Shown here: positions 19,752 through 61,262 of the stretch, piece after piece
How the letters are laid out: each line of letters starts with the position of its first letter
How positions within the stretch are numbered: position 1 is the first letter of the stretch
Assembly (NCBI GenBank): GCA_964446585.1
Contig: CAYUPI010000005.1
Span: 12,593-76,592, forward strand
DNA: 64,000 nucleotides
DNA from: an uncultured Verrucomicrobiota bacterium
Lineage (GTDB): Bacteria; Verrucomicrobiota; Verrucomicrobiia; Limisphaerales; UBA8199
Direction of reading: 5' to 3'
Program-made: the position numbers and the translations under genes
The notes under the pieces: generated by a model
Database searches by the model: none
What the model was told of the DNA's origin: nothing
What the model saw: the letters and a program-made list of their open reading frames with translations, nothing else

Positions 19752-19796
19752 GCATTTGCGCGTTCGGAGCGCGGTTGCAAAATCACTTTAAGTGTC

Positions 19797-19816
19797 GGAG
19801 CCGACGTAAGGAGGCT
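19797..19816. repeat. Single arm of the GCCGACGTAAGGAGGCT hairpin repeat family
   Basis: The sequence ggagccgacgtaaggaggct matches the arms of the hairpins at 49151..49244 and 55421..55502. No partner arm is adjacent. Confidence 0.6.
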
Positions 19817-19826
19817 TTGATCATTT

Positions 19827-21161
19827 ATGGATTTTGGAATCTCCAATCAGAACCTCCGTACGGGCGTGTTGCCCAAATCTCTTGAGGGTAGGGCGCGCTG
19901 TCCACAGCGCGCCGCGGTTCTGTCGCACACTGCGAGTTTGTTTGGTTTCTGCGGTATTCGTCGCCGCGCTGTCTTCAGCGCGCCAGAGCGTTGGGGTTTC
20001 GCGCCATTTCGGCAACGCGCCCGTACGACGGCTCGAACCGTTTCTCGGTTTTCATCATCGTCTCACCGTGCCGGAGTCGGACGAAGGCAGGTCATTCGTA
20101 ATTCAGCTTTGGCTGTCTTCCTTGCTGTGCAGGGGTCATCACTGAGCGCTCAGGTTGAGCCGGTCTTTCCCGGCGAACATTGGGAGTTCCGGCAACCTGA
20201 GTCAGTGGGTTTGTCCCAAGCGAAACTGGATGCGTTGCGTGACCCTGTTGGCGGGCGAGGTTGCGTGGTTCGGTATGGTTACGTGGCGTATAGCTGGGGC
20301 GACCCCGCCCGGAGCGCCGATATCGCCTCTGCCGTCAAGCCGGTCATTTCCACGCTCCTATTCTTTGCCGTTCAGGAGGGAAAATTGACGAGCGTGGACG
20401 CACCAGTTTCCGAATTCGAGCCGCGTCTCAAGACGCTCAACCAGGGCAAAGATGTTTCGATCACCTGGCGGCATTTCGCCTCGCAGACTTCCGGGTATGG
20501 CTTGTCTGAGCCGCCCGGCGTAGCCTACGCCTACAACGATTTCGCGCTGGCGTTGTACTACGACACGCTGACTCAAAAGGTTTTCACGACGAATGGCACC
20601 GAGGTCCTTCGCTCGCGATTAGCCGAGCCTCTGAAATTCGAAGACCATTATTCCTTCAGCCCGTTCAGGCGGCCGGATCGCGATGGCCGGCTGGCGATTT
20701 CCACGCGCGATTTGGCGCGCTTCGGCTTGCTTTATTTAAGGCAGGGAAAATGGCGCGGCCAACAGCTCTTGCAGACAAATTTCGTGCGAATGGCCCTTCA
20801 CAGTCCGGTGCTGCCGAATACTCCGCGCACTGGTGGTAATGAGGCCGAGATGCTGCCTGGACAGCGAACGCTGGGCGGGACACGCAACATAACCGGAGCC
20901 GGCCCGGGCTATTACAGCTTCAACTGGTGGCTCAACGGCACGAACTCCGCTGGTCGGCGTTTATTCGCGCATGCGCCGCCGGACGCTTACGCCGCTGCGG
21001 GACATGGCGGCATTCGCGTCCTGTTCATCGTTCCGAGCCTCGAGCTTATTGTATGCTGGAATGACGGCCAAATCGAGGACTTTGATGAATCCCCGGGAAA
21101 TCCCAATACCAGGATGAACCAGGCCACGCACCTGGCTTGTGAAGCAGTGACGGGGCCCTGA
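19827..21161 (+). CDS. Beta-lactamase-family serine hydrolase (secreted); start codon uncertain
   Basis: The ORF translation shows a signal-like segment (NSALAVFLAVQGSSLSAQ) and an SxxK motif (ASAVKPVISTLLF) within a beta-lactamase-related fold context. The first ~70 codons of the ORF are read through the MITE at 19856..20027. The real start is probably downstream, but I found no obvious ATG/GTG just upstream of the signal peptide. Confidence 0.65.
   Translation: MDFGISNQNLRTGVLPKSLEGRARCPQRAAVLSHTASLFGFCGIRRRAVFSAPERWGFAPFRQRARTTARTVSRFSSSSHRAGVGRRQVIRNSALAVFLAVQGSSLSAQVEPVFPGEHWEFRQPESVGLSQAKLDALRDPVGGRGCVVRYGYVAYSWGDPARSADIASAVKPVISTLLFFAVQEGKLTSVDAPVSEFEPRLKTLNQGKDVSITWRHFASQTSGYGLSEPPGVAYAYNDFALALYYDTLTQKVFTTNGTEVLRSRLAEPLKFEDHYSFSPFRRPDRDGRLAISTRDLARFGLLYLRQGKWRGQQLLQTNFVRMALHSPVLPNTPRTGGNEAEMLPGQRTLGGTRNITGAGPGYYSFNWWLNGTNSAGRRLFAHAPPDAYAAAGHGGIRVLFIVPSLELIVCWNDGQIEDFDESPGNPNTRMNQATHLACEAVTGP
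19856..20027. repeat. MITE-like element (family with GGCGCGCTGTCCNCAGCGCGCC internal hairpins)
   Basis: The terminal inverted repeats are ccgtacgggcgtgttgcccaaat (19856-19878) and atttcggcaacgcgcccgtacg (20006-20027). There are two internal hairpins, gcgcgctgtccacagcgcgc and gccgcgctgtcttcagcgcgc. Related copies lie at 22138..22374 and 38112..38146. Confidence 0.75.
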
Positions 21162-22036: not shown

Positions 22037-22137
22037 AGTCGGCGTAAGGCATTGTAGGAGACGACGTGAGGAGTCTCCGATTATGGCGTTTCGACCAACG
22101 TTGGTGTCGTTTGCCAACAAATTGATTAGAGTCTCCT

Positions 22138-22374
22138 CACGGGCGTGTTGTCCAGATCCTATGAGGGTAGGGCGCGCTGTCCCCAGCGCGCAGCGATGCG
22201 GTCCCAACCTGCGATTTTGCTCGGAAACTGGGGTGTTCGTTGGCGCGCTGGATACATATATCAGAAAATCTGTCATTTTCGCGAAGATTTATTGTGCAAA
22301 CGCAGATGGGCGACGCGCTGGGACAGCGCGCCCTACCTTTTGGACCTCGCGCCATTTGGGCAACACGCCCTCAC
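22138..22374. repeat. MITE-like element, same family as 19856..20027
   Basis: The left arm is cacgggcgtgttgtccagatcctatgagggtagggcgcgctgtccccagcgcgc. The right arm is gcgacgcgctgggacagcgcgccctaccttttggacctcgcgccatttgggcaacacgccctcac, which is its near reverse complement. It lies in the divergent intergenic region between the lipoprotein and AMP-ligase genes. Confidence 0.8.
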
Positions 22375-22498
22375 TTCGTCTCCTACAGTCACAAACTGGC
22401 GACCTCTGGGCAGACTTTCTCACTGGCCTTGCAATTGGCCGTTGGCAATTCATGTTACGGCTTGCCGCAGAAACTATCCGCGCGCAACCTGACTGACA

Positions 22499-24054: not shown

Positions 24055-24378
24055 TTAAAACTCGGAGGCAATACCATTGACTGACACCTTTTCGGAGATG
24101 ATCTGCATGGCGCGAATCGTCGGCGCGCCGCTCACCGTGCCCGCCGGCAACGTCGCGCGCATCAGGTCGTAATTGGTTTTGCCCGCCGCCAGCCGGCCCT
24201 CGACGCTCGACACGATGTACATGATGTGGCTGTAACGCTCGATGATCATCAGGTCGCGCACCTGCACGCTGCCGAAATCGCACACGCGCCCGATGTCGTT
24301 GCGCGCGAGGTCCACGAACATGACGTGCTCGGCCCGCTGCGACGGCGCGACAGCGCGGCGAGCGCGTTCCTTCGGGTC
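24055..24378 (-). pseudogene. Internal fragment of a chorismate-binding enzyme (TrpE/PabB/isochorismate synthase family)
   Basis: The translation reads [87 protein letters not shown]. This matches the conserved catalytic core of the family, but roughly 300 N-terminal and 100 C-terminal residues are missing. Homology stops exactly where the REP copy at 24067..24088 begins (tail [11 protein letters not shown]). Confidence 0.75.
24067..24088 (-). repeat. REP copy (GGTGTCAGTCAATGGTATTGCC family)
   Basis: The plus strand reads ggcaataccattgactgacacc, the reverse complement of the copy at 26549..26570. It forms the 3' boundary of the trpE-like fragment. Confidence 0.85.
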
Positions 24379-26382: not shown

Positions 26383-26548
26383 TCCAGACGCACAGCCGTC
26401 GAGCAGGAGCAAGTGTCACCCATTAGGACGGGTGTCAATAAGTAAAAAAATTGCCGTGCCCAATTCTTCGTTTGGGTCGCTCTTCTCTGCCTGAATCAGT
26501 TCTGCCAGGCACTAGAAGCCATCTTGCTCTGTTGAAACCATTCAAAAA

Positions 26549-26570
26549 GGTGTCAGTCAATGGTATTGCC
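26549..26570 (+). repeat. REP copy (GGTGTCAGTCAATGGTATTGCC), 3' flank of the RAYT gene
   Basis: The sequence ggtgtcagtcaatggtattgcc ends 5 nt before the stop-codon end of the transposase gene. It has an internal hairpin (CAAT-GGT-ATTG). Confidence 0.85.
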
Positions 26571-26574
26571 ATCT

Positions 26575-27537
26575 TTATAGATCAAGGCTGGCCTGATTGT
26601 CCTCCGGCGAAGTTTTGCCCTGCCAATACAGTAGGTGCGTCACATTGCCCCGCGTTCCCATGTTTAGCCTCCGCGCAATCCAAGACACGGTAACGGTAGT
26701 TTCTTTTCGAAGCTTGCTTGCGAGAGCCACTTTGAATTGATCCCCTTTTGGTCGCGCCGCAAGGTGGTGCTCCGTCAAATGTCTTCGCTTCAACTCGCCA
26801 CGGATCAACCGCTCAGCTTTGGCCTCAGCCGACTCCTGTAGTTCCGCACCATAATGCCACAAGCCGCGCTTTTCCGAAACTTGCGCCAATAATTCATCCC
26901 GAAATTCCTCACTGCCCAGACACCAGCCCCGCCGCAGTGGCTTAAATTCCTCCTCTGACTCGCCTTGCCGCCGCGCCTCGAGTTGTGCGGCCAATTGTCG
27001 CCGACCCGCTACGCTGTCCTTGGGAATGCCCCATTCTCCCAGGCAACGGTCCACCCGCAGCCACGCCGGCCGACGCGACGGTTCTTGCAGGTACAGCGGA
27101 TAACTGCTCCAGCGGTAACTGTCCAGCGGCGCTTCCGGGCCCAGCAGATGCGCGCGCACCGGGTTCAAATGCACGTAGTCGCAAACGCTTTTGAGGTAAC
27201 CGTTGCCACTGCCATCCACGACCAGCGCTTTGTAGCGGCCGCTGAACAGATGGCCAAAGAGCTTGTGACGCCGGTTGAACCGGCGAGTGTATTCTCCCGG
27301 CAACCATTTCATTCCGGCGACCAGGTTGGCCTGAGGGGTCTCCACGACCAGATGAAAATGGTTCTGCATCAAACAGAACGCGTGGACCAGCCAGGCGGTC
27401 TTGGAGCACGTTTCACCCAACGTCCTCAGGAAGCACTCGTGGTCCACGTCATCGCGAAAAATTGGCTCGCGGTGATCGCCCCGATTCATGACGTGATAAA
27501 TCGCCCCTGGGTATTGAATGCGGAGCTTCCGAGCCAT
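26575..27537 (-). CDS. IS200-like HUH/Y1 transposase of the REP-associated (RAYT) type, with an extended C-terminus
   Basis: 320 aa. It starts MARKLRIQYPGAIYHVMNRGDHREPIF, has the HUH motif (MQNHFHLVVETP) and the catalytic Tyr motif (CDYVHLNPVRAHLL). Inverted copies of one REP flank it. The C-terminal ~100 aa (TVSWIARRLNMGTRGNVTHLLYW) may be an HTH domain. Confidence 0.85.
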   Translation of the reverse strand: MARKLRIQYPGAIYHVMNRGDHREPIFRDDVDHECFLRTLGETCSKTAWLVHAFCLMQNHFHLVVETPQANLVAGMKWLPGEYTRRFNRRHKLFGHLFSGRYKALVVDGSGNGYLKSVCDYVHLNPVRAHLLGPEAPLDSYRWSSYPLYLQEPSRRPAWLRVDRCLGEWGIPKDSVAGRRQLAAQLEARRQGESEEEFKPLRRGWCLGSEEFRDELLAQVSEKRGLWHYGAELQESAEAKAERLIRGELKRRHLTEHHLAARPKGDQFKVALASKLRKETTVTVSWIARRLNMGTRGNVTHLLYWQGKTSPEDNQASLDL

Positions 27538-27572
27538 ACAGCCAAAACGTCGCCGGAGCGCGAGAATGTGTC

Positions 27573-27592
27573 AATACCATTGACTGACACCT
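27573..27592 (-). repeat. REP copy in inverted orientation, 5' flank of the RAYT gene
   Basis: The sequence caataccattgactgacacc sits within gtgtcaataccattgactgacac, a near-perfect hairpin (GTCAAT/ATTGAC). It lies 36 nt upstream of the RAYT start codon. Confidence 0.85.
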
Positions 27593-27615
27593 TCTCGGTG
27601 CATGATAGCTCCGGG

Positions 27616-38052: not shown

Positions 38053-38111
38053 TCGGTCGATTCGGACAGCCGCTGCAGACATCCTTTCGCGGCTAGTGGC
38101 CTTCCTGCCCT

Positions 38112-38146
38112 TTGGACTGCGCGCCCTTTAGGCAACACGCCCTGAC
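38112..38146. repeat. Solo arm of the MITE family seen at 19856 and 22138
   Basis: The sequence ttggactgcgcgccctttaggcaacacgccctgac can be compared with ttggacctcgcgccatttgggcaacacgccctcac at 22340-22374. Confidence 0.7.
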
Positions 38147-38265
38147 TTCAGGGGCTGCGAACAATGAAATGTGCAGATTCGCGACGATTTCCCATGGCAC
38201 GGTTCATGCGCTCTCGCTGCGCCATGGTCTGGATATGACCAGACCGGTGTTGCGGGATAACAAGT

Positions 38266-44818: not shown

Positions 44819-46407
44819 TGAATCCTCCGGCGCAGGACGCATACGACGTCGCCATCATCGGCGGCGCGTTGTCGGGCGCGGCAGCGGCCATACTCTTGCT
44901 GGGCGAGCGGCCGGAGCTGAAGATTTTGATTGTGGAAAGAAGCGAAAGCTTCGGCCGACGGGTGGGTGAAGCGACGGTGGAGGTGAGCGGCTATTTTCTA
45001 GGGAGGATGCTGGGATTAACCGGTCACCTCAATGAGGCCCACCTCGTGAAGCAAGGGATGCGGTTCTGGTTCTTCAACGATAAGGCACGAACGATGGCCG
45101 ATTGCGCGGAAATCGGCGGCCGTTATCTTTCCCGAGTTCCCGCGTATCAAGTCGATCGGGCGGTGCTCGACGAGGAAGTTCTAGCGCGAGCGCAAGCTGC
45201 GGGCGCAGAGTTCTGGCGGCCGGCGTTAGTCAGCCGGGTGGATCTGGCGGCTGGCGGGCGACAGCTCCTTAAGGTGCGGTACCAGGAGCGAACTCGCGAG
45301 GTTTCCGCCCGGTGGCTGGTTGATGCGTCCGGGGTGGCAGCCGTGCTCGCGCGGCAGGAAGGTTGGTGGCGGCCAAATACCGAGCACCCGACGACGGCGG
45401 TTTGGGCGCGGTGGACGGGCGTTAAGGACTGGGACGGACTCGAGTTGACAACGAAATTCCCGGAATGGGCCATGGCCTGCCACGGCATTCGCAACACGGC
45501 GACGAATCATTTTGTTGGCAATGGCTGGTGGGCCTGGTGCATTCCTCTAAAGGGAGGAGACGTCAGCATTGGGGTCGTGTTCGATCAACGGTTCGTGCAA
45601 TGGCCGGAGGACGGCTCGCTCGGACAGAGGTTGAAGGATTTCCTCGCGCAGCACCCGGTCGCGCGGGAAATCATGGCAGACGCGCGCTGGCGCGAGGGCG
45701 ACGTGCACTGGCGCAAAAGCCTGCCTTATTACAGCACAACCTTCGCGGGCGACGGATTCGCTTTGGTCGGCGATGCGGCGGCGTTCCTCGATCCGTTTTA
45801 CAGCCCCGGCATGGATTGGATTGCTTTCACTTGCACCGCCGCCTGCAAGCTCATCTTGGCGGAGCGGCGAGGGGAAGCTCTGGCGCCCCTGCTGGCGCGG
45901 CACAATCGCGATTTTGCGCGCAGTTACCAATGGTGGTTTCAAGCCATTTACCAGGACAAGTACGAATACATGGGCGAATTTGACCTGCTGCGGGTGGCAT
46001 TCCTGCTCGACGCCGGCCTCTACACGATGGGCGTGGCTTCGCAGCCTTTCAAACGAGGCGCGGTGGCGTTGACCGAACCGGTTTATTCCACGCCGCCCTC
46101 GGTTCCATTTTTCCATTTGATGCGCAGGTATAATCGGCGCCTGGCGCGGATGGCTCGCGCGCGCCGGCTTGGAGACCGGCTAGGACGACGCAATGCGGGC
46201 CGGCGCTTCATGTTCCAGGGATACACGTTCGCTCCAGCCAGCAGTGTTCACATTGCCAAAGGCGTGGCCGCCTGGGCCTGGCTCGAACTCAAAGAGGGAT
46301 GGAGGAGCTGGTTCGCGGCGGAAAGCTCCAAGCTCCAAATCCCAAACTCCAAACATATTCCAAGCACCAAATCCCAAACTCCGCAGCCCGCGGCATGCGA
46401 AATCTGA
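44818..46407 (+). CDS. Second FAD-dependent oxidoreductase with flavin-dependent halogenase signatures
   Basis: 529 aa with GxGxxG (DVAIIGGALSGAAAA), WxWxIP (GWWAWCIP) and FxxPxxSxG (FLDPFYSPG). The start overlaps the upstream stop (TAATG). The last ~25 codons (SKLQIPNSKHIPSTKSQTPQPAACEI) read into a repeat element. Confidence 0.8.
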   Translation: MNPPAQDAYDVAIIGGALSGAAAAILLLGERPELKILIVERSESFGRRVGEATVEVSGYFLGRMLGLTGHLNEAHLVKQGMRFWFFNDKARTMADCAEIGGRYLSRVPAYQVDRAVLDEEVLARAQAAGAEFWRPALVSRVDLAAGGRQLLKVRYQERTREVSARWLVDASGVAAVLARQEGWWRPNTEHPTTAVWARWTGVKDWDGLELTTKFPEWAMACHGIRNTATNHFVGNGWWAWCIPLKGGDVSIGVVFDQRFVQWPEDGSLGQRLKDFLAQHPVAREIMADARWREGDVHWRKSLPYYSTTFAGDGFALVGDAAAFLDPFYSPGMDWIAFTCTAACKLILAERRGEALAPLLARHNRDFARSYQWWFQAIYQDKYEYMGEFDLLRVAFLLDAGLYTMGVASQPFKRGAVALTEPVYSTPPSVPFFHLMRRYNRRLARMARARRLGDRLGRRNAGRRFMFQGYTFAPASSVHIAKGVAAWAWLELKEGWRSWFAAESSKLQIPNSKHIPSTKSQTPQPAACEI

Positions 46408-47565: not shown

Positions 47566-47880
47566 AGAAGGCCGAAGGCCGAAATCCGAAGACCGAAGAA
47601 AGCTCGAAACCCGAATGCCGAAATCCGACCCGCCCTCCGTAGCGCCAGAGCATGCCGTGAAGCCTCCGCGCGCGAGAATGCCTTCGTTTCCAACAGTGGC
47701 CCGGGCACCGATACTGCGGAGGGTGGAAGGAAATCCGAATGACGAAGCCCAAATGGTGGATTGCAAATTGCGAGAGCAGGAGAAAAGCTCAAGTCTGGAT
47801 CCTGTTCGGTCGGTGCTGACTATCGGCGCCCGCCGTTCGGACTTCCTTTAGGCTTCGGATTTCTTTCGAGCTTCTTTGCG
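47566..47880. repeat. MITE-like element with GAAATCCGAA-rich inverted arms
   Basis: The left arm is agaaggccgaaggccgaaatccgaagaccgaagaaagctcgaaacccgaatgccgaaatccgacc. The right arm, gcgcccgccgttcggacttcctttaggcttcggatttctttcgagcttctttgcg, is an approximate reverse complement. The central copy is ggaaggaaatccgaatgacgaagccc. Confidence 0.65.
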
Positions 47881-48747: not shown

Positions 48748-49149
48748 ATGCTCTTACTCGAGTCAACCATGAGGGAAAACGAAATGCGAGCGGCCCTGCT
48801 GCGCCGGTGGCGGAGAATTTTGTCGCGGCTAGTTTTCTATTTGTTGCTGGCGACCGCGATTGGGTGGACGCTGAATCGCATCGGGAAGTCGATGCAACGC
48901 AGTCCGCGCGCGGCCGGTTTCGGGCGCGGGCTCATCCAGGGCGCGCTAATGCCGATGGCCATGCCCAATCTGCTCGTGGGCAACGATGTGGCGATCTATT
49001 CTCAGAATAACACTGGCCTGACCTACAAACTCGGTTACACGGTTGGCGTAAACGCCTGTGGCGCCATCTTTTTTGGATTTTTTTTCTGGCGCGTCCGCCG
49101 TTGGCGGAACGAAGCTTTTCCTAAGAGCCCTGTTGGAAAATCCCTTTGA
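48748..49149 (+). CDS. Small hypothetical membrane protein
   Basis: This is the internal Met of ORF 48454..49149. There are two or three hydrophobic segments (LVFYLLLATAIGWTL, GALMPMAMPNLLV, ACGAIFFGFFFW). No family was recognised. Confidence 0.45.
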   Translation: MLLLESTMRENEMRAALLRRWRRILSRLVFYLLLATAIGWTLNRIGKSMQRSPRAAGFGRGLIQGALMPMAMPNLLVGNDVAIYSQNNTGLTYKLGYTVGVNACGAIFFGFFFWRVRRWRNEAFPKSPVGKSL

Positions 49150-49150
49150 G

Positions 49151-49244
49151 TGTAGGAGCCGACGTTGGAAGGCTCACTTCAAATGCGGAGTGAGGAGTGA
49201 GGAGTGCGGAATTAGATCAGAGCCTCCTGACGTCCGCTGCTACA
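49151..49244. repeat. Hairpin repeat (GTAGNAGCCGACGTNGGAGGCTCA arms) between convergent genes; possible bidirectional terminator
   Basis: The arms are tgtaggagccgacgttggaaggctca (49151-49176) and gagcctcctgacgtccgctgctaca (49220-49244). It is the same family as 55421..55502. Confidence 0.75.
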
Positions 49245-54677: not shown

Positions 54678-54842
54678 ATCTTCTGTCTGCCCGGCAGAGG
54701 CCTCGCAGTAGGCCGGAATGCAGAAGACGTAGCCGCCGGAGTGAGGAGGCAGGTTTCTGTTGGCAATACAGTGCCGACCCCCTTCAACTACAACGAGGGC
54801 TCTAGATTCTCCAGCGCCTTCTGCGTACGATGCTGCGCGGCC

Positions 54843-55424
54843 GTGAATGAACCAAACGTCAACCGGGCGTTCTACCTGCCTCGACTGCAGCGCGAGCATT
54901 ATCAAGGCGACGCTGTGGTTCACTGGACAGTTCCTTTCTCGCACCGGCGCCAAGGCTGGCTCGATGAACGTTTTCACGCTGGGTTTCGTGAGTTGATGCT
55001 ACACGCCGCCGCGCGGGAGGCGCTGCTCTGCCCGACGTATTGCTTGATGCCGGATCACTTGCACCTCGTCTGAATGGAGCTGCGTTTGGATTCCGACCAA
55101 CAGAACGGCATGGCCTTCCTGCGAACACATCTCGAGTCCAAGCTCGCTCCGGAGAAATTCCAGCATCAGGCGCACGACCACGTACTCAAAGAGGAAGAGC
55201 GCCGTCGGAACGCATTTGCCCGCGTCTGCAACTATGTCCTTGAAAATCCGCTCCAGGCAGAACTGGTGAAGCATCCGGTAGAATGGGCATTCAGCGGTGC
55301 AGTTGTGCCCGGGTATCCGACGTTGCATCCTTTGCAAAAAGAATTCTGGTCGAGATTTTGGAAGCTCTATGGTCAGGAGAAGCACCCGGACACGGGGCAA
55401 ATTATTCGTCCGCCCATTCGGTAG
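54843..55424 (+). pseudogene. HUH/Y1 (IS200/RAYT-like) transposase-family gene interrupted by one in-frame TGA
   Basis: ORFs 54741..55073 and 55074..55424 are in the same frame, separated only by a TGA at 55071-55073. The product reads ...YCLMPDHLHLV*MELRLDSDQ..., with the HUH motif (DHLHLV) and the Tyr motif (VCNYVLENPLQAELV). The probable start is the GTG at 54843 (MNEPNVNRAFYLPRL). The stop codon lies inside the hairpin repeat at 55421. Confidence 0.7.
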
Positions 55425-55502
55425 CAGCCGACGTAAGGAGGCTCACTTCTCCGCGGAAGGTTCCCCGCAAAGAGAAGTGAGCCTCCTTACGTCGGCTGCT
55501 AC
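55421..55502. repeat. Perfect 31-bp inverted repeat hairpin (REP-like)
   Basis: The left arm is gtagcagccgacgtaaggaggctcacttctc (55421-55451). A 20-nt loop follows, then the right arm gagaagtgagcctccttacgtcggctgctac (55472-55502). Confidence 0.9.
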
Positions 55503-55602
55503 AAATTCGATTGTCCCATCGTGCTCTGGTGACCAGACGATCCGCCCCTTCGTAAAGTGTGCCGACGAAGTGTGCGACAAACAGAGCGAAGAAAAGGGAG
55601 GA

Positions 55603-57120
55603 TTATGAGGCCAGGGCGGCGCGGGTGCGCTTGACCAAATCATTGTCCTTGTCGCCGGTGCCACGCAGGTTGAAGACGCTGGCGGCCAGGAAGCGATCGC
55701 GCCACGGAGCGGAGAGGTGCTGGTAATCTTCCAGGACGGCTGAACTGAATTTGTAATCGTGTGAATTGTTGCCTTTGAGGAAAATCAGGCGGCGCGCGGT
55801 GTTGATAAATTCGTCCGGCTGCGGATTGTTCCCGAAACAGGCAAGCGCGTGCCGAGCGGCGTCCATGCGGTCATGGCTAATTTCAGCGAAGACATTTTCG
55901 ACGGTCGGCGGTCTGCCGACGGGGCTGTCAGGAGGCTGTAATTCATCAATGCGGACGGACTTCAACTTTTCTCCACCGCGGAAAAGAGCCAGGAACGCGG
56001 CGTTTTGGAGCAGCAACAACCGCCGGGTCTCATCGTTACCACAGTTTTGGAACGCAAAATGGATGGCATTAGATGATGTCAACGCGTGCAGTGACAGGAT
56101 GCCGGGCCGGCGCATCAGCAGTTCCGCGGCGGCGCTGAACAGGCCGTCCCAGATGGATTGTGGGGCGACACCGCGGTTGAGCAGTTCGACGACTTTTTCA
56201 GATGCTTCGGTCGGCGACGCGACACGGAGAGTTTGCAGCAACTCAGTTGTCGCGGCGGGGCTGGGTTGGCCGGTGGGCCATCCATCGCGAATTTGTTTCA
56301 CCAGGTTCAAATTGTGCCGACCCGGTCGGTCGGCGGGCAGATCAGCTTTGGCCGGATTGGCGTCACCATCGCGATCGAGCAGACCGTAGGCTAGCGAGCG
56401 CAGCACGGCTTCGGCATGATGCCAGCCGATCGCCTGCAATGTTCGCCAACTGTTGGCGACGTAAATTGCCTTATGACCGATCTCGCGGAAGTCGCGCGTG
56501 CCGTAGCGGCAGAAGATTTCGAACAGCTCCTGCGCGCCGGCAGTGCGCGCGAGGCCAGTGACGGCGACATCGGCGGCGGGTTCATCCCAATTATTCATGG
56601 CGTCGATGAAGGCCTGCCGGGCTTTATGCGACGGAGGAACTTTGGATTCATCGATGGCGGCCATCGTCCAGTCGCCTTCGCGGGCGTCTTCCGCCTGGGC
56701 CGATTTGAAATAATCCAACGCCCAGAAAATCGGCAACCAACGATCGGAATCGGGCGAAGAAAGGCTGGCGAGATGGGCGGAGTTGACGACGAGCACGGAG
56801 TGAAATTTGAATCCGATCGGCCGGGGTTGGATATTGCGGACGCCTGCCAACAGCAATGCCGCCAGCACCTCGCGATAGGTCAGACCGTGATGAATCCGAA
56901 TAGCCACTTGTTCGAGCAGCTTCTCCCGCGGGGTATCTTCCAGAAAACGGACGACCGGCTCGATATCGGGGCCGAATCTGACAACCTTGGGATCGAGCTG
57001 GGCTTCCGCAGCCGTGATGCGCGGCAAGCGGGCGAGAAAGGACAAGTCGCCCAAGCCGAAAGCCGCGCCGGTAGCGGCGGCTGCTTTCAAAAACCTTCTG
57101 CGTGACGGCAAGGTGGTCAT
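55603..57120 (-). CDS. Hypothetical protein with a twin-arginine (Tat) signal
   Basis: ORF 55603..57273. The ATG at 57120 gives MTTLPSRRRFLKAAAATGAAFGLGDLSFLA. The body is helical-looking with no recognised family. Confidence 0.65.
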   Translation of the reverse strand: MTTLPSRRRFLKAAAATGAAFGLGDLSFLARLPRITAAEAQLDPKVVRFGPDIEPVVRFLEDTPREKLLEQVAIRIHHGLTYREVLAALLLAGVRNIQPRPIGFKFHSVLVVNSAHLASLSSPDSDRWLPIFWALDYFKSAQAEDAREGDWTMAAIDESKVPPSHKARQAFIDAMNNWDEPAADVAVTGLARTAGAQELFEIFCRYGTRDFREIGHKAIYVANSWRTLQAIGWHHAEAVLRSLAYGLLDRDGDANPAKADLPADRPGRHNLNLVKQIRDGWPTGQPSPAATTELLQTLRVASPTEASEKVVELLNRGVAPQSIWDGLFSAAAELLMRRPGILSLHALTSSNAIHFAFQNCGNDETRRLLLLQNAAFLALFRGGEKLKSVRIDELQPPDSPVGRPPTVENVFAEISHDRMDAARHALACFGNNPQPDEFINTARRLIFLKGNNSHDYKFSSAVLEDYQHLSAPWRDRFLAASVFNLRGTGDKDNDLVKRTRAALAS

Positions 57121-61194: not shown

Positions 61195-61262
61195 GGAAAA
61201 TCCCAAGCTCCAAACACCAAATTCCAGAAAAACTCCAATTCCGAAACCCTAAGAAAGAAATC
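61195..61262. repeat. CCAA(A/G)CTCCAAA-type repeat (same family as the 3' end of ORF 44818..46407)
   Basis: The sequence ggaaaatcccaagctccaaacaccaaattccagaaaaactccaattccgaaaccc can be compared with ctccaagctccaaatcccaaactccaaacatattccaagcaccaaatcccaaactccgcag at 46325-46385. Confidence 0.6.

Follow-up and report, generated by a model that had tools for sequence, protein, structure and literature searches.

To our knowledge, work on REP-associated tyrosine transposases (RAYTs) and on the repetitive extragenic palindromic (REP) sequences that accompany them has been done almost entirely on Gammaproteobacteria and Neisseria. Here we analyze such a gene from an uncultured bacterium of the Verrucomicrobiota (order Limisphaerales, UBA8199). 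It lies at positions 54843-55424 on the plus strand of a 64-kb stretch of DNA (assembly GCA_964446585.1, contig CAYUPI010000005.1, positions 12,593 to 76,592), in the following called the window, which is the part of the source genome covered in this work, and its 3' end runs into a long hairpin repeat at 55421-55502. RAYTs typically are low-copy genes associated with REP doublets forming hairpins, or REPINs (Bertels et al. 2017, PMC5581495), and in E. coli, Pseudomonas and Neisseria they have been described as being lost or acquiring premature stops, with decay of the REPINs as a consequence (bioRxiv 10.1101/2021.07.10.451892). REPs tagged with GTAG have also been reported in the PVC (Planctomycetes-Verrucomicrobia-Chlamydiae) superphylum, in Opitutus terrae, where flanking open reading frames (ORFs) often take their TAG stop codon from the end of such a repeat (Di Nocera et al. 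2013, PMC3733652). Our analyses show that the window gene belongs to a divergent RAYT clade of Limisphaerales/Pedosphaera-like Verrucomicrobiota and that the hairpin is its cognate GTAG-tagged REP doublet. The gene is interrupted by a single in-frame TGA, and we consider it likely that it is a young RAYT pseudogene that arose when the codon for Trp77 turned into a stop (W77stop).

Among described systems, E. coli RayT/TnpA_REP with its REP sequences and bacterial interspersed mosaic elements (PDB entry 4ER8; Messing et al. 2012, PMC3479197; Ton-Hoang et al. 2012) was the best fold match to a structural model of an ortholog. Both proteins feature the same order of HUH motif and single tyrosine, and both carry a tryptophan three residues past the HUH motif (HMHCIW in E. 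coli, HLHLVW in the window family). In both systems the gene is flanked by GTAG palindromes, and repeats far outnumber genes. However, TnpA_REP and the window protein share only about 18% identity, and the window clade, unlike E. coli TnpA_REP, has a C-terminal extension of about 40 residues. The repeats differ in build, as GTAG/CTAC in the window clade is part of a 24-31 bp stem with a variable loop, whereas in E. coli the GTAG is found 5' of a short stem. Moreover, the window copy is interrupted by a stop codon, which E. coli TnpA_REP is not.

The REPIN-RAYT systems of Pseudomonas and Neisseria (Bertels and Rainey 2011, PMC3116915; PMC5581495; bioRxiv 10.1101/2021.07.10.451892) likewise consist mainly of inverted hairpin doublets. 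As in the case described here, their repeat type covaries with the RAYT clade, several divergent paralogs may reside in one genome, and RAYTs are lost or carry premature stops. In contrast to these systems, our host phylum is Verrucomicrobiota, and the window arm is conserved across many species with RAYTs 66-83% identical, whereas described REPINs usually are lineage-specific. The repeats surveyed by Di Nocera et al. (PMC3733652) resemble ours in having GTAG at the end of a stem-loop, in their occurrence in the PVC superphylum and in donating a TAG to an ORF. Yet the available portion of this survey mentions neither the present arm nor a Limisphaerales RAYT clade, and it describes adjacent ORFs as receiving the TAG, whereas here the receiving ORF recurrently is the RAYT itself (17 of 72 loci). 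Finally, TnpA of the IS200/IS605 insertion sequences (IS608, ISDra2) shares the HUH/Y1 fold and recognizes subterminal hairpins in single-stranded DNA. The similarity of the window family to these enzymes is weaker than to TnpA_REP, with Pfam Y1_Tnp not significant, and, unlike IS200/IS605 elements, the family shows neither distinct left and right ends nor identical multi-copy units.

Hence, a known kind of system is extended to a new lineage, with no new mechanism. What is new is modest: a Limisphaerales clade that scores below curated thresholds and often is annotated as hypothetical, an arm conserved across species and a stop codon that recurrently lies in the gene's own REP. Together with about 1900 relatives, the locus defines a well-delimited RAYT clade with matching GTAG hairpins in soil and freshwater Verrucomicrobiota. 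Curated models miss this clade, which stays under the NCBIfam cut-off and is undetected by Pfam. Its description could be of use for annotation, with many homologs currently listed as 'hypothetical protein', as an explanation of spurious ORFs that stem from translated repeats, and as a comparison set for REPIN population biology. The premature stop would be either ordinary RAYT inactivation or an error, and the understanding of RAYT systems is unchanged by it.

The gene can be read as one frame of 193 codons from a GTG at 54843 to the TAG at 55422-55424, with the TGA at 55071-55073 as the sole internal stop (CLMPDHLHLV*MELRLDSDQ). An initial annotation, made from the DNA letters and a list of ORFs, had described two ORFs as one frame split only by this TGA; our translation agrees and places the tyrosine motif CNYVLENP downstream. 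The GTG start is matched by orthologs that begin at the same V/M-NEPN in the protein alignment. Codons 70-76 encode the HUH motif PDHLHLV, in which His72-Leu73-His74 (CAC TTG CAC, 55056-55064) aligns with HMH of 4ER8, and both histidines are invariant in the 64 homologs used for motif comparison and for the family-model scan. C-terminal to it, and in the window copy beyond the premature stop, follows the single-tyrosine motif Y-x3-NP. It contains the codon of the catalytic Tyr131 (TAT, 55233-55235) and aligns with YIYINP of 4ER8, with Y131 and N135 invariant as well.

A database search found 1915 relatives. The best 120 of these are 67-81% identical to the window protein at essentially full query coverage and mostly about 190-210 residues long, with a minority of up to 267 residues owing to N-terminal extensions. 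Every named relative among these 120 is from Verrucomicrobiota, and several carry the JGI label RayT. In a collection of 5.8 billion proteins the nearest one is only about 80% identical, so that the source species is probably absent from sequence collections. Neither the 116-aa fragment behind the TGA nor the product of the neighboring gene, with 288 aa, had an exact match on record. Two of the N-terminal extensions, in P0070 and P0086, are spurious, as gene callers there translated a repeat arm into ...SLLTSAAT... peptides; the same arm translation accounts for a spurious short ORF across the hairpin in the window (55297-55608).

The sole curated model to match the window protein was REP_Tyr_transpos of NCBIfam (NF047646; E = 7.6e-13, 48.6 bits), and all 64 homologs scanned matched this model and no other. 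When the PDB was searched with the family profile, only one sequence was found, E. coli TnpA_REP (4ER8), the alignment pairing HMHCIW with HLHLVW and YIYINP with CxYxLENP. Our structural statements rest on an AlphaFold model of the ortholog P0001, which is 80% identical to the window protein (pLDDT 86, pTM 0.84). With this model, Foldseek returned chain 4ER8_A on top (E = 3e-7, TM 0.60/0.70, root-mean-square deviation 2.7 A over 141 columns), followed by IS200/IS605 TnpA structures. The initial annotation had also proposed a RAYT/REP pairing, which is borne out by the sole model match, by 4ER8 being found through both sequence and fold, and by the GTAG...CTAC hairpins that flank the orthologs.

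For genomic comparison we used 83 gene copies from 80 loci of GTDB species representatives (loci numbered with the prefix L). No conserved synteny with the window was found at these 80 loci. Where a genome has two or three homologs, these are divergent paralogs. The metagenome-assembled genome (MAG) JAHCLO01, for example, has at least three, a tandem pair at L034 (4563-5138 and 5436-6011) and a further copy at L035, each of which adjoins hairpins of the GTAGCAGCGGACG type. An insertion sequence-like multiplication in this genome was rejected because the three copies are divergent and the coding regions of L034 and L035 give no megablast match to each other.

The TGA at 55071-55073 takes the place of Trp77 (TGG), as seen in both protein and DNA alignments. 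A change from TGG to TGA at a conserved tryptophan had been suggested beforehand from an HLHL(V/I)WMG consensus, and the homologs agree with it. The stop column is W in 19 of 21 aligned relatives (L and C in one each) and in 83 of the 83 genomic homologs. Because HLHLVW aligns with HMHCIW of 4ER8, the tryptophan lost here is conserved out to E. coli. In the P0001 model it resides within the central, HUH-bearing beta-strand (residues 72-79). Codons 77-79 are TGG ATG GGG in close homologs but TGA ATG GAG in the window; the second G-to-A difference, 5 nt from the first, turns codon 79 (55077-55079) from Gly into Glu. This codon is G in all 83 genomic homologs, and E occurs in one intact database protein, P0112. 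The alignment contains 57 positions with a conservation of at least 95%. Besides W77stop and G79E, no deviation from these is seen in the window ORF; homologs deviate at 0.9 such positions on average. With G79E as the sole amino-acid deviation among highly conserved positions, decay has barely begun, and the conservation of the remaining ORF leaves two readings of the lesion, a nonsense mutation of recent date or an error in base calling.

Recoding was ruled out as an explanation. TGA is the commonest true stop in the window: of 33 long ORFs, 19 terminate with it, valS and a leuA-like gene among them, which argues against its being read as Trp at codon 77. Selenocysteine was dismissed as well, since no SECIS-like fold follows the TGA (z = +1.8) and the homologs have Trp at this position, with Cys in 1 of 21. 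A search for tRNA genes in the 64-kb window found none.

Nonsense inactivation recurs in this RAYT clade. Four of the 83 genomic homologs, all from independent MAGs and otherwise well conserved, contain a single nonsense codon (TAA or TAG) elsewhere in the gene: L016 (position 811) at Q107, L022 (10379) at the catalytic Y131, L025 (10043) at Q37 and L049 (1374) at F168. We also scanned metagenomes with CACCTCGTCTGNATGGAGCTGCG for an alternative allele of the window gene and obtained 0 matches, although this pattern also demanded the lineage-specific GAG at codon 79.

The hairpin beside the gene is REPIN-like and consists of two arms (55421-55451 and 55472-55502) and a 20-nt loop. The arms are 31 nt long, 100% complementary and both tagged with GTAG (GTAGCAGCCGACG...), and in the single strand 55421-55502 folds with -43.5 kcal/mol (z = -11.8 vs dinucleotide shuffles). 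As the initial annotation had noted, the gene's own TAG is located within the first arm of this perfect repeat, where it makes up bases 2-4, inside GTAG (GTAGCAGCC...). An arm profile matched both arms at E = 2e-7. In a search near the gene, neither an intrinsic terminator nor a promoter was found at the hairpin, and no T-tract follows it. Among known RNA families, only animal miRNA precursor models appeared for the hairpin, below threshold, as they would for any long perfect hairpin.

A second, decayed REP doublet is found upstream of the gene at 54729-54791. Its left arm GTAGCCGCCGGAGTGAGGAGGC was detected by nhmmer at 54729-54750 (E = 0.054), and a right-arm remnant at about 54770-54791 no longer pairs with it. 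Nevertheless, L001, L002, L004, L006 and L011 have intact upstream hairpins to which the site aligns in every column. In the close orthologs L001-L025 the gene is flanked on either side by a hairpin with the same arm, GTAGCAGCCGACGT[A/G]AGGAGGCTC.

GTAG...CTAC hairpins are found beside the gene in 65 of the 80 homolog loci. In the 72 loci with full flanks, searched up to 250 nt upstream and up to 200 nt downstream, a hairpin is present upstream in 45, downstream in 38 and on both sides in 25, and in 17 the TAG that ends the gene is part of GTAG, as in the window. More distant RAYT clades are accompanied by other arms, for example GTAGGAGACGACG, GTAGCCGCGTTTG and GTAGCAGCGGACG. Arms and proteins diverge in parallel (Mantel r = 0.66 between their distances; 0 of 999 permutations were as high), a correlation to which shared ancestry of gene and flank contributes. 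Non-coding arms would not otherwise be expected to stay alignable at 20-40% protein divergence, which suggests that they are under constraint. Away from the genes, hairpin density in the homolog loci is 4.8 per 100 kb, compared with about 0.7 in simulated sequence.

The arm family is not restricted to the vicinity of the gene. A profile search finds five sites in the window, all between confident genes, and a 14-nt arm motif with at most two mismatches occurs 9 times, where 1.08 are expected and 0 of 100 shuffles reached 9. Two dispersed members had been recognized earlier and were recovered with slightly shifted borders. One is an imperfect doublet at 49152-49243 (initially 49151..49244), between the stop of a plus-strand ORF (49147-49149) and that of valS (49264). 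The other, at 19794-19816 on the plus strand (initially 19797..19816), is a single arm, GTCGGAGCCGACGTAAGGAGGCT, found by arm profile and motif scan, the right partner of which is truncated by another repeat. The decayed upstream arm at 54729-54750 and a site at 22054-22077 with partial partners had been overlooked. The latter belongs to a composite element at 22054-22389, in which arms of the sister subfamily, GTAGGAGACGACGTGAGG, surround an inner palindromic repeat (partners at 22129-22141 and 22369-22386). An arm of the GTAGGAGACGACGTGAGG type also flanks a different RAYT clade, at L032, L038, L039, L053 and L060.

Beyond the window, the exact 29-nt arm is present in at least 120 metagenome contigs. 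A RAYT homolog is nearby in only 2 of the 120 listed arm-bearing loci, and none is found in 118. Taken together with the counts in the window and in the homolog loci, this points to an enrichment of the arm. Of 137 sites in metagenomes, 99 are plus/minus doublets, and their loops have a median of 32 nt. Of the metagenome sites, 62% fall into an open frame of at least 200 amino acids, compared with 80% of random positions, a test that is noisy in GC-rich DNA.

We may picture the function of the system in analogy to E. coli TnpA_REP. Once the hairpin is extruded as single-stranded DNA, its GTAG would be the part through which the intact enzyme binds it. The DNA beside the hairpin might then be cut, Tyr131 forming a covalent 5'-phosphotyrosine link while the metal ion is held by the HUH histidines, and rejoining of the ends could spread and maintain a dispersed population of REP doublets. 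The hairpin at 55421-55502 would be the copy abutting the gene, its GTAG supplying the TAG stop as in many orthologs. In the window copy, the change from TGG to TGA at Trp77, in the middle of the HUH beta-strand, would terminate normal translation after 76 residues. As this product ends without Tyr131, we infer that it is no active Y1 enzyme. Full-length enzyme could then arise only through rare UGA readthrough by tRNA-Trp, by which the ancestral residue would be restored.

The undecayed remainder of the gene and the perfect downstream hairpin imply that the lesion is either very recent or not real, whereas a real mutation is favored by the decay of the upstream hairpin and by the nonsense alleles that recur in other assemblies. 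We hence think it probable, with fair confidence, that the pseudogene is genuine and young. Several points weigh against this reading. The two G-to-A differences, 5 nt apart, may be due to poor local consensus as easily as to two mutations, and the TGA could have been introduced in assembly or base calling. An intact paralog could act in trans from beyond the 64-kb window. The score of 48.6 bits with NF047646 falls short of the equivalog cut-off of 80 bits, and the match to Pfam Y1_Tnp lacks significance (E = 0.15; 12.6 bits with a cut-off of 23); family membership therefore stands on E-values, motifs and fold. The enzymatic activity of the clade is a prediction from E. coli TnpA_REP. Moreover, without shared synteny a vertical, 'domesticated' inheritance is unsupported.

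If the TGA were a sequencing or assembly error, the genome would read TGG, perhaps also GGG at codon 79, and the RAYT would be intact and active. We regard this as rather unlikely. An active system would have just such a perfect downstream hairpin and an ORF with G79E as the only deviation at the 57 conserved positions, and both consensus differences are of the same G-to-A kind and close enough to stem from one local artifact. On the other hand, valS (920 aa), the leuA-like gene (520 aa) and ORFs of 1630 and 1747 aa are unbroken in the window, so the assembly is not generally noisy, and substitution errors are rare in polished assemblies. A scan for in-frame single stops as a check of assembly quality was swamped by spurious long ORFs. 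The nonsense codons in 4 of 83 homologs come from independent assemblies, which implies that real nonsense alleles exist in the family, and the decayed upstream hairpin is likewise at odds with an intact system. Improbable in our view is a real but leaky stop, at which tRNA-Trp would insert the ancestral Trp and a small amount of full-length RAYT would persist, attenuated in dosage rather than dead. Among bacterial stop codons UGA is the leakiest; tRNA-Trp misreads it, and an A directly 3' of it favors readthrough. Here the context is UGA-A, the stop is positioned exactly at a Trp codon and the 116 codons downstream are undecayed; on/off switching of a RAYT, by frameshifts, has been proposed for Neisseria (bioRxiv 10.1101/2021.07.10.451892). 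However, TGA is found at codon 77 in none of the 83 genomic homologs, their nonsense alleles being TAA or TAG at unrelated codons, so that no conserved recoding site exists. There also is no stimulatory structure past the stop, and a recent mutation explains the undecayed ORF equally well. Single-nonsense alleles in 5 of 84 family genes including the window copy, each otherwise intact, invite a slightly bolder and still less probable speculation: UGA at Trp77 might act as a self-correcting leaky attenuator that yields a trace of authentic RAYT, and the recurrent nonsense alleles might constitute a reversible on/off or dosage switch. Such a switch would, if true, settle the conflict between the REP population and its host.

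The adjacency of stop and start (TGAATG) raises the question of a split gene, in which translation would restart at the ATG at 55074 and a 76-aa HUH fragment and a 116-aa Tyr fragment, both intact, would reassemble to an active enzyme. We consider this very improbable. At least 90% of the 64 homologs have Met78, as do 21 of 21 sequences of the smaller alignment, and this near invariance shows the ATG to be ancestral rather than evolved for restart. The break would also fall in the middle of the central beta-strand 72-79 of the P0001 model, and neither the database relatives nor the 83 genomic copies include a homolog split at codon 77. Just as far from probable is that gene and flanking hairpins form an autonomous insertion sequence of the IS200/IS605 type instead of a RAYT with dispersed REPs. 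The fold does match IS200/IS605 TnpA too, orthologous genes are bracketed by hairpins, and synteny is not conserved. Yet hairpins far outnumber genes, with no RAYT nearby in 118 of 120 listed metagenome loci, copies within one genome are divergent, as in L034 and L035, both flanks carry the same symmetric hairpin instead of distinct left and right ends, and the best matches in sequence as well as structure are to TnpA_REP, not to IS608 or ISDra2. The preferred interpretation thus remains that of a RAYT pseudogene beside its cognate REP doublet.

Another HUH gene is located in the window on the minus strand at 26575-27537. It encodes 320 aa and matches Pfam Y1_Tnp with E = 4e-13. The RAYT gene had been called independent of it, in keeping with an identity of only about 28% over 141 residues and a different terminal repeat of about 25 nt. 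This first gene is bracketed by inverted copies of the 25-26-nt GGCAATACCATTGACTGACACCTT (26545-26571 and 27569-27593), of which a third copy occurs 2.5 kb off at 24067-24092, and a 68%-identical relative of the gene is held by L062. It looks like an independent Y1 transposase that has terminal inverted repeats of its own.

Some of the repeats in the window have additional parts. The sites at 19767-19816 and 49125-49174 share about 27 nt of further similarity 5' of GTAG (GAGCSCNGTTGSAAAATCMCTTTRAGT), with 82% identity over 50 nt. This extension is absent from the copy beside the RAYT; at 49125 it encodes the last residues of the upstream ORF, the TGA of which is found 2 nt before GTAG. A second GTAG repeat, GTAG-GGCGCGCTGTCC(A/C)CAGCGCGCC, has the classical REP shape, with GTAG, a 9-bp stem and a 4-nt loop. 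It occurs as an inverted pair within palindromic elements of about 200-250 nt with the ends GGCGTGTTGCCCAAAT...ATTTGGGCAACACGCC, which are located at 19846-20041 (units at about 19889-19917 and 19960-19985) and 22125-22389 (units at about 22167-22195 and 22310-22336). Both elements are found at the same point within the right arm of a GTAGGAG(A/C)CGACG-type hairpin, bracketed by short duplicated CGTACG or CTCAC(G/T). Judged from this arrangement, the palindromic element looks like a repeat nested in a repeat, or else a duplicated composite unit. A third, solitary copy of its CCATTTGGGCAACACGCCC end is found at 38104-38149 (85% identical to 22332-22377). Finally, intergenic low-complexity, CCAAA-rich direct repeats (GGAAAGCTCCAAGCTCCAAATCCCAAAC...) and a 41-nt imperfect inverted repeat rich in GAAATCCGAAGACCGAAG occur at 46320-46377, 61195-61252 and 47581-47863.

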